The position numbers and the translations under genes were made by a program. From a virus: a stretch of 5,955 nucleotides of DNA. Numbering within the stretch: the stretch's first letter is position 1; each line of letters starts with the position of its first letter. This document shows positions 2,966 to 5,955 of this stretch, piece by piece. The stretch is from positions 1 to 5,955 of IMG/VR virus record IMGVR_UViG_3300029374_000071. One strand, 5' to 3'. Below the pieces are notes generated by a model, which saw only the letters and a list, made by a program, of their open reading frames with translations, was not told the origin of the DNA and did not search any database.

Positions 2966-2990
2966 GCGCGGTACTTGCGCGAAATGCGAT

Positions 2991-4293: not shown

Positions 4294-4368
4294 GCTATTG
4301 CTCCTTTTTCCGTATTGTACCAAGCAAACTTCTGGTTGTCAACTGGGAGTTTGCTTCTTTCATGTTTT

Positions 4369-4773: not shown

Positions 4774-5769
4774 CTATAAGGTTTCTTTCGGCTCTCTCCA
4801 TTTCTGTTTTTGCTTGTCTTTTTCCTTTTGTATCTCTAGGTATGTTGAGTACGGAACATTTGTGTTTTGCTCTAAGTTTACAAGGCTTAGCACTGCGTTT
4901 CTTCGTCTTTTGGCTCTTACTGTTCTTAGCTCGTCAGAATGGGCCTTGAAATAGCTTTCAGCGTCTTTGTTGGTATCCTTATCAAGAAGCTTATCAAAGT
5001 ATCTAGGCGGCCTTTTCTGCCGTCCTCCTGCGCATGTGATGTTGTCGGTTTCTAATATTTCGTTCATGTGCTCTTTTAGATACTCTTCTGCGATGCCTTT
5101 TGACATGATTCTAAATTCCGGTTCGCGGCCTTGCATCCAGTATTTTGAGCTCTGCTCTGCTCCGATTGCCTTTTTATTGACGTACTGTGTTACATATGAG
5201 TATGATCCTGGTGCCGCTGGGGAAAAGTCTACGAAGCCTTTTCCCCATATGTTCGTGAGCCATTCGCTTTTAAAGTATGCGTTGCCTTTCTGGTTTTTGT
5301 ACCACACTCCGTCCTCTGGTTTTAGTCCAAAAAAAATTCCGTGGTAGTGTGGCCTTTTTGTTCTGTCTCCATATTCTCCTGCTATGAAGTATTTTATCGG
5401 CTTTTTGTATGCCTTTCTGAGACGTTTTAGAAAAAGTTGTACGTCTCTTTTGCTCACTGTCTGTGATTGGATGCTCTGATAGCCTTTTAGGATTTCGCCA
5501 TAAGGTACGTGTTCCTCGTCATAAGTCATTGTAACGAAAATTACATCATCCCATCTTTTGGCTTCTAGTTCTATTCTCGTTGCCCATTGGTCTGCCATCT
5601 GTTTTCGGCAGTATTCACATTTCCCGCATGGTAACAATGCAAGGTTTCCTTTTTTTACGCCGTCCATGATTGTTTGTTCTAGGTTCTGTTTCTTTAGGTA
5701 CTTTAGACTTCCCCACATGGTTGGTTTTTTTGTGTTCATCTGGAAAACATTCGGATTTGTACATGGCAT
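4774..5769 (-). CDS. Rolling-circle replication initiation protein (Microviridae VP4 / phiX174 gpA family).
   Basis: 331 aa. RCR motif I is FVTMTY, motif II (HUH) is PHYHGIFFG and motif III is YVTQYVNKK, with two tyrosines spaced as in phiX gpA YVAKYVNK. A Cys cluster CGKCEYC is present. The length is typical of gokushovirus VP4. Confidence 0.95.
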   Translation of the reverse strand: MPCTNPNVFQMNTKKPTMWGSLKYLKKQNLEQTIMDGVKKGNLALLPCGKCEYCRKQMADQWATRIELEAKRWDDVIFVTMTYDEEHVPYGEILKGYQSIQSQTVSKRDVQLFLKRLRKAYKKPIKYFIAGEYGDRTKRPHYHGIFFGLKPEDGVWYKNQKGNAYFKSEWLTNIWGKGFVDFSPAAPGSYSYVTQYVNKKAIGAEQSSKYWMQGREPEFRIMSKGIAEEYLKEHMNEILETDNITCAGGRQKRPPRYFDKLLDKDTNKDAESYFKAHSDELRTVRAKRRRNAVLSLVNLEQNTNVPYSTYLEIQKEKDKQKQKWREPKETL

Positions 5770-5773
5770 AGGT

Positions 5774-5806
5774 TTGGCGCAAGTTCACTTGTCTATCTTG
5801 CGCCAA
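5774..5806. promoter_or_regulatory. Perfect 10-bp inverted repeat TTGGCGCAAG-N13-CTTGCGCCAA, ending 4 nt upstream of the Rep ATG.
   Basis: Arms at 5774-5783 and 5797-5806 are exact reverse complements. On the mRNA strand the 3' arm is followed by ACCT-ATG. No Shine-Dalgarno lies between the repeat and the start codon. Confidence 0.6.
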
Positions 5807-5838
5807 TTGACACCTCTCTTTCGTTTTTAATTTAAATT

Positions 5839-5872
5839 GCGTGCGCGTGCGCGTTTCGCGCGTGCGCGCGCA
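5839..5872. repeat. Two alternating purine-pyrimidine (Z-DNA-prone) tracts, GCGTGCGCGTGCGCG and CGCGCGTGCGCGCGCA, separated by TTT. The second tract is duplicated at window positions 5-20.
   Basis: Read directly from the sequence. The 10-bp perfect palindrome TGCGCGCGCA is at 11-20 and 5863-5872. Confidence 0.7.
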
Positions 5873-5955
5873 ATACCTTAGCATCAATCGATGCGACAGC
5901 CCCCGCGTTAGGGGGCGACGTCGCAAGGGGGCCGTTAACGGTAGTTAACGGCCCC
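5853..5955. repeat. Right copy of the 103-nt terminal redundancy. Its hairpin and Z-prone elements duplicate those at 1-103.
   Basis: Exact identity to 1-103. Confidence 0.85.

Follow-up and report, generated by a model that had tools for sequence, protein, structure and literature searches.

What is a perfect inverted repeat doing directly before the start codon of a replication initiator? The question arises in the window, the 5,955-nt stretch of viral DNA analyzed here, in which two arms (5774-5783 and 5797-5806) are complementary at 10 of 10 positions, enclose a 13-nt spacer, and end 4 nt (ACCT on the coding strand, 5773-5770) before the Rep ATG (5769-5767, minus strand). The original prediction described this arrangement correctly and offered two explanations for it, a stable RNA hairpin at the ribosome landing site or an ideal dimeric operator in the DNA, both of which would keep the dosage of the initiator under tight control.

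The window represents a gokushovirus (Microviridae) whose complete circular genome of 5,852 nt is given with a 103-nt terminal overlap; positions 1-103 are identical to 5853-5955, an exact duplication that represents the assembly overlap of the circle. Its closest GenBank relatives are human-gut gokushoviruses (KT264784, 87%, followed by KX513864 and KX513876). The minus strand carries all window genes: Rep/VP4 (4774-5769, 331 amino acids), VP1 (1316-2965), VP2 (408-1277), and the remaining genes for an M15 peptidase, VP5, and a VP3-like scaffold. Rep is an HUH endonuclease with the motifs HYH and YVTQYVNKK (Pfam PF23343, E = 3.8e-19). Across 24 diverse Rep homologues, residues H141, H143, Y192, Y196, K199, and K200 are invariant, as are C3 and P6 of an N-terminal M-x-C-x-x-P motif. 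Because this N terminus is invariant, the Rep start codon is correct, and initiation at another codon with its own ribosome-binding site is ruled out. An overlapping upstream open reading frame from TTG 5806, 4 nt past GAGGTG, was also rejected, as this TTG is CTG or CCG in relatives. A scan for sigma-70-like promoters returned none in the long non-coding region upstream of rep in the window; the two best matches (4342-4314, 11/12; 4607-4579, 10/12), both extended TG sites on the minus strand, follow rep and precede the peptidase gene. Given these candidates, transcription may reach rep last, at the end of a long read-around transcript.

By dinucleotide shuffling, a genome is expected to contain 0.07 inverted repeats that match perfectly over 10 bp or more and enclose a 3- to 20-nt loop. 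A 53-nt DNA fold of the repeat reaches -12.6 kcal/mol (z = -6.1), a stability equaled by none of 200 shuffles. The predicted RNA hairpin reaches -14.5 kcal/mol and is retained in the folds of all clade members, in agreement with the stable RNA structure originally proposed. Read along the plus, non-coding strand, the element comprises a 5' arm TTGGCGCAAG (5774..5783), a 13-nt loop TTCACTTGTCTAT (5784..5796) containing CTTG at 5788-5791, a complementary 3' arm CTTGCGCCAA (5797..5806), and a TGACAC flank (5808..5813). An intrinsic terminator was considered and rejected: there is no T/U run, the stem being followed by ACCTATG on the coding strand or by TTGACACC on the other strand, and a terminator scan of the window did not list 5774-5806. 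Searches with Rfam 15 covariance models gave no match at or near these positions and three weak chance matches elsewhere in the window.

Relatives keep the repeat with compensatory changes, so the objection that it might not be conserved falls away. In close relatives, GGCGC/GCGCC in the stem becomes GGCCC/GGGCC or GGCAC/GTGCC and TT..AA becomes CC..GG, and the loop and 5' flank GAGGTGTCAA (coding strand) are constant. Distant relatives were gathered by Rep homology (31-42% identity), and elements were identified by regular-expression and hairpin scans. Of roughly 200 gokushovirus genomes examined, about 90% contain the element, and nearly every gokushovirus carries exactly one; GTGTCA together with a perfect hairpin occurs in about 67 of 76 diverse Rep-related loci. 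Of 78 control loci, 65 carry the element on the coding strand and none carries it on the opposite strand. The consensus, on the strand bearing CTTG, is a stem of 8-18 bp, a loop with yCTTGAT or ACTTGTy, the returning stem, 0-3 nt, and TGACAC(C). CTTG is invariant in all 38 aligned elements and in all 64 unique elements, and in each of the 64 it lies 16 or 17 nt from TGACAC. These 64 elements carry 53 distinct arms, with 3-4 Watson-Crick pair types per core position (counted by a position index anchored on TGACAC, as arm lengths differ). The idea of a dimeric operator does not survive this pattern, in which the arms are variable and the conserved CTTG loop and TGACAC flank are asymmetric.

Among classical isolates, the element occurs in Chp2 (2904-2941), SpV4 (512-544), and, with a divergent flank, phiMH2K; it is also present in prophages of Clostridia, Negativicutes, Christensenella, Phascolarctobacterium, Sutterella, and Intestinirhabdus (Enterobacteriaceae being among the host groups). 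Because it is conserved across hosts of different phyla, the element is likely read by a phage-encoded protein rather than by a host factor, and Rep/VP4 is its presumed partner. Two prophage regions are tandem gokushovirus insertions, with two diverged copies (70-83% identity) in Intestinirhabdus alba (L368, 6672-13939) and two identical copies in L351 (9000-19910). The paired hairpins in these regions lie one genome length apart and are internal to the tandem phage repeats, and a role as a prophage attachment site of the dif-like/XerCD type was rejected on the ground of this placement. A looser scan of the collection (GTCAA-N10-ATAGACAAG) was uninformative, its matches being mostly chance occurrences in large contigs. 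On the coding strand of the window, two further CTTG-N17/18-TGAYAS matches (4608-4582 and 3663-3636) lack a hairpin, are absent from the relatives L001 to L003, and were set aside as chance. A separate 9-bp hairpin, AAGCGGGCG-ggtgtattcact-TGCCCGCTT, lies about 54 nt inside the Rep open reading frame on the coding strand and is conserved in one gut subclade (L079, L080, L082, L083, L085, L086, and L089). Our literature search found no description of this hairpin or of a gokushovirus replication origin; older Chlamydia-phage papers might mention the repeat. Unexplained conserved hairpins are reported from two other small microvirus clades (PMC9865509).

In every case the element lies between genes, and its place relative to rep varies. 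The hairpin lies 4-14 nt before the Rep ATG in the window clade and 24-26 nt before it in a sister clade, where a canonical Shine-Dalgarno (SD) sequence (GGAAGGAGG) stands between hairpin and ATG. In most gut genomes, the element is found 0-10 nt past the rep stop codon; in others, it follows an open reading frame of roughly 150 amino acids and precedes VP1 or rep. Closeness to the Rep ATG is a feature of the window clade, and outside that clade no fixed position relative to the start codon is kept. Because the arms are free to vary, the conserved letters are asymmetric, and there is no tie to the rep start, the repeat is not primarily a palindromic or translational operator of Rep. That it is instead a family-wide cis element is a conclusion that we hold with much more confidence than the origin role proposed below.

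We therefore consider it quite unlikely that the repeat exists mainly to control Rep dosage, whether as an RNA hairpin that occludes or bridges the ribosome-binding site or as an operator in the DNA. What speaks for such a role is local: hairpin and AUG adjoin, no SD is close to the start, most of the AUG and leader is predicted to pair, an SD-like GAGG precedes the stem by 4 nt and has an effective spacing of 8-10 nt across the clade, and VP2 has a similar layout. Dosage control does not account for most genomes, in which the same loop and flank follow the rep stop codon or neighbor other genes, nor for the sister clade, in which the SD stands between element and start; moreover, a purely structural RNA element would need no conservation of loop or flank.

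The leader of rep in the window clade nevertheless has features that would bear on translation. The original prediction held that Rep, like VP1, lacks an SD and that all the small genes have strong ones. This is accurate for the 20 nt before the start codons, where none is found for Rep or VP1 and SDs are present for VP5, VP3, the M15 peptidase, and a 60-amino-acid open reading frame; it overlooks an SD-like GAGAGGUG (5818-5811) directly 5' of the hairpin. Within this motif, GAGAGGTG (5811..5818, minus strand), which precedes the hairpin by 4 nt, GGTG complements the conserved ..CACC flank, and the additional GA(G) is restricted to the clade in which hairpin and Rep ATG adjoin. The window clade alone has the GGTGTCA flank extended to GAGGTGTCA or AAGGAGGTGTCA, an SD-like sequence 4 nt 5' of the stem. 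Leaders of this clade continue with the hairpin, then 4-8 nt, then AUG. The resulting arrangement in the window, GAGGTG-TCAA-[33-nt hairpin]-ACCT-ATG, has an effective SD-AUG spacing of 8 nt, and clade variants have 8-10 nt. In the window and L001, the ACCT spacer between hairpin and AUG (5770..5773, minus strand) can pair with AGGU of the SD-like motif, a pairing that is not conserved in L002 or L003. Folds of the window and L001 also pair GGUGU with AUGCC, and the AUG is mostly paired. As the original prediction proposed, the hairpin in the mRNA does occupy the site where ribosomes land; the AUG has a predicted probability of being unpaired of 0.17-0.26 (window, L001, and L003) or 0.58-0.64 (L002 and L070).

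Hairpin-bridged ("split") ribosome-binding sites are known from phage T4 genes 38 and 25. As in T4, the SD in the window is more than 40 nt from the AUG linearly, and a stable hairpin would bring it within 8-10 nt; unlike in T4, the hairpin is transcribed from a DNA element whose conservation has another cause, and both SD and AUG are partly hidden in the predicted folds. From these folds, we infer that the transcript of the element probably shapes Rep translation, by bridging or by occlusion, as a secondary and clade-specific effect. When docked on TGACAC, Rep would be some 40 bp upstream of its own start, and the leader hairpin and bound Rep could limit or tune Rep synthesis. In the window, the VP2 leader is a second SD-hairpin-AUG layout, in which the SD GAAAGGAGAA is split from the AUG (1277) by a terminator-like hairpin, AGCCGGG-caaaga-CCCGGCT (1305-1286), and ATTTTTAA (minus strand, region 1278-1317). 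For VP1, which outnumbers every other virion protein, there is no SD within 25 nt of the ATG (2965), which is abutted only by a weak GCGC...GCGC hairpin (2966-2990, minus strand).

If Rep reads the element as DNA, phiX174 offers a template. In the phiX174 record, the viral-strand origin is annotated at 4306, in the sequence CAACTTG^ATATTAATAACACTATAGACCAC, which reads CTTG-N17-GACCAC; a recent mutagenesis paper again gives the cleavage as between G4305 and A4306, within a 30-nt ori(+) (bioRxiv 10.64898/2026.07.25.740675). Rolling-circle initiators use a nick locus and a bind locus (PMC5714925). The gokushovirus element resembles ori(+) in several respects. CTTG stands at the cleavage position in both, GACCAC lies 17 nt past CTTG in phiX174 and TGACAC 16-17 nt past it in gokushoviruses, with the GACAC portion at 17-18 nt, and both initiators combine an HUH motif with YVxxYVNKK (YVAKYVNKK in protein A and YVTQYVNKK in the window Rep). 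The two also differ: the phiX174 spacer is AT rich with no hairpin at the origin, whereas the gokushovirus spacer is the 3' arm of the hairpin; the phiX174 origin is inside gene A on the coding (viral) strand, whereas the window site is intergenic and on the non-coding strand; and phiX174 reads CTTG-AT, as do most gokushovirus elements, whereas the window loop reads CTTG-TC (ACTTG-TC).

Thus, the element has three features expected of an origin, namely, a nick motif in the loop, a binding-type locus at a fixed distance, and an HUH/two-tyrosine Rep encoded by the same replicon. Because of this phiX174-like layout, the Rep motifs, and the conservation across host phyla, we take the repeat to be, probably, the stem of the gokushovirus rolling-circle double-strand origin hairpin, used for synthesis of the packaged strand and nicked past CTTG. 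By analogy with G4305^A4306, the predicted nick in the window would fall between G5791 and T5792 of the plus strand, giving the layout stem - loop TTCACTTG^TCTAT - stem - T - TGACAC, with TGACAC as the putative Rep binding locus. In the mechanism that we envisage, the repeat would extrude or melt in supercoiled replicative-form DNA and present a single-stranded loop; Rep/VP4 would dock on TGACAC 16 nt downstream and cut past CTTG with one of its two tyrosines; the 3'-OH would be extended by host polymerase; and, after one turn, Rep would cut and rejoin the regenerated site to release a single-stranded circle for packaging.

A hairpin on the packaged strand might instead serve as a complementary-strand origin (sso/ssi type) that recruits host primase, PriA, or RNA polymerase and is not nicked by Rep. 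The repeat does form a stable hairpin in single-stranded DNA, phiX174 uses a hairpin PriA site, and a role in second-strand start has been proposed for microvirus intergenic hairpins (PMC9865509). We regard this alternative as unlikely. CTTG and GACAC at a fixed 16-17 nt match ori(+) of phiX174 and not ori(-), dependence on host-specific factors fits poorly with conservation in phages of Chlamydia, Spiroplasma, Clostridia, Negativicutes, and Proteobacteria, and the separate, stronger GC-rich hairpins that adjoin the repeat are better candidates for such a site. A complementary-strand origin would equally make the CTTG strand the packaged one.

The adjoining hairpins, three in number and very stable, lie directly downstream of the origin hairpin on the plus strand (5836-5874, 5892-5925, and 5927-5955, the last corresponding to 75-104). 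The first has an 18-bp alternating purine-pyrimidine stem, and the DNA fold reaches -50.3 kcal/mol (z = -7.5). Compensatory changes preserve all three in L001 and L002, and L003 lacks them; a complementary-strand origin and attenuators preceding rep are the candidate roles. Farther along, eight copies of TGTTGAA(A) occur at 241-405, all on the plus strand, with one other copy in the genome, and similar repeats are found in L002 and L003. The non-coding block of roughly 200 nt that spans them (206-414) is 76-89% identical to otherwise unrelated gokushoviruses (H4, H5, H8, and H9) and possibly contains iterons, a second-strand origin, or a promoter array.

The orientation of the element relative to the genes differs among gokushoviruses. 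The coding strand carries CTTG in Chp2, SpV4, and many metagenomic genomes, as in phiX174; in the window and a large gut clade, the non-coding strand carries it. Orientation is accompanied by a difference in strand composition. At 4-fold sites, the coding strand has a positive AT skew in all 56 inverted genomes (+0.22 to +0.70; +0.52 in the window, with A243 and T76) and a negative one in 40 of 47 same-orientation genomes (mean, -0.46). The non-coding region of the window is likewise T rich on the plus strand. The virion-strand polarity of the reference phages is established; their skews are -0.75 in phiX174 and -0.40 in SpV4. In a VP1 tree of 122 genomes (a rough neighbor-joining tree), inverted elements arise in at least four to five separate places among same-orientation genomes, and the sign of the skew tracks each. 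Three genomes with almost the same hairpin, GGCCCCATTA(A)C...GT(T)AATGGGGCT-gag-TGACAC, illustrate this: L347 and L349 are inverted (+0.37 and +0.31), and L348 has the same orientation as its genes (-0.34).

Codon usage of the host does not explain the A-rich bias, because host genes flanking inverted prophages do not share it (skew, -0.11 to -0.18, compared with +0.49 to +0.75 for phage VP1). Substitution spectra were also compared. Among singletons in inverted clades, C>A exceeds G>T on the coding strand 8- to 19-fold, A>G exceeds T>C, and A>C exceeds T>G; same-orientation gut clusters, formed as controls at 80% identity or more, show the complementary, mirror-image pattern. Deamination should produce an asymmetry of C>T versus G>A, which is weak in the inverted clade (0.96-1.38); that of C>A versus G>T is strong. 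The direction of transcription relative to the genes is equal in both groups, so the strand that spends time single stranded is the only asymmetry left that could produce the flip.

AT skew is an imperfect marker of polarity, given seven same-orientation genomes with weakly positive values (+0.03 to +0.40) and strongly negative GC skew. Most of these sit in an environmental clade that also holds phiMH2K (+0.31), whose orientation our script left unclassified. This environmental, proteobacterial-type group (phiMH2K [L147], L128, L130, L122, L358, L371, L374, and L383) is an exception to the T-rich rule: its classifiable members are same orientation, and the 4-fold sites of the group are A/C rich and strongly G poor.

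Such exceptions indicate that other forces act on composition, and they lend some weight to a further alternative, in which the hairpin is an origin or another site acting in double-stranded DNA that flipped without any change of the packaged strand and the composition reflects selection or another mutational regime. We consider this possible but doubtful. All inverted genomes are positive, the sign switches at every one of the independent flips down to L347 and L349 versus L348, neighboring host genes lack the bias, transcription cannot produce the flip, and the substitution spectra are mirrored.

The simplest reading of the flip is that the CTTG strand is the strand displaced and packaged. 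Because the nick motif lies opposite the genes, on the T-rich, virion-like strand, the window and its gut clade likely package the antisense strand. On these sequence comparisons, antisense packaging is our leading hypothesis, held with modest confidence. With the same modest assurance, we propose that the large, diversified gokushovirus clade from human and animal guts that includes the window, together with several smaller, independently flipped lineages, consists of negative-sense Microviridae that arose through an inverted origin and that the hairpin is the long-missing gokushovirus ori(+) with a phiX174-like layout. The hypothesis is new and specific. A search of the literature for negative-sense microviruses found nothing, and genes on the complementary strand are essentially unknown in Microviridae (Roux et al., PMC3394797).

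Gokushoviruses are among the most abundant single-stranded DNA phages of gut and environmental viromes, and the searchable signature stem - yCTTGAT - stem - TGACAC would allow origins to be annotated in thousands of metagenomic genomes. The element is also a defined substrate for VP4 biochemistry, and its orientation predicts that virions of the window clade contain the antisense strand. To our knowledge, textbooks treat all Microviridae as positive sense, and antisense packaging, if true, would overturn that rule for the family. It would also explain the A-rich coding strands of gut gokushoviruses such as PhiCA82, for which 38.6% A and 21.6% T were reported without comment (PMC3135560), and would matter for strand-specific virome libraries, for skew and codon-usage analyses, and for host prediction from codon usage. 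The repeated flips are natural replicate experiments in which the single-stranded state can be set against mutation spectra.

Several known systems bear comparison with the element. A report on mitochondrial control-region inversion (PMC13602327) describes an inverted replication origin accompanied by reversed strand skew, as in the inverted gokushoviruses; the replication mechanism and the type of genome are different, and the parallel serves as an analogy for inference only. Origins of CRESS viruses (circoviruses, cycloviruses, geminiviruses, and nanoviruses) likewise have a stem of free sequence and a conserved loop motif with the nick site of an HUH Rep, located by rep, and Circovirus and Cyclovirus place this origin differently with respect to their coding regions (PMC5656780). 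A CRESS-type identity was nonetheless rejected. The window loop TTCACTTGTCTAT and the family consensus yCTTGAT contain neither the TAGTATTAC-type nonanucleotide nor NANTATTAC, the gokushovirus Rep lacks an SF3 helicase domain and carries two tyrosines, and a single TGACAC at a fixed distance takes the place of iterons. Plasmid origins of the pC194/pUB110 family, served by HUH Rep_1 initiators, have the nick motif CTTG^ATA in common with phiX174. These are plasmid replicons whose Rep families are unrelated by Pfam to that of gokushoviruses, but they share with the gokushovirus element the combination of a nick locus and a bind locus (PMC5714925).
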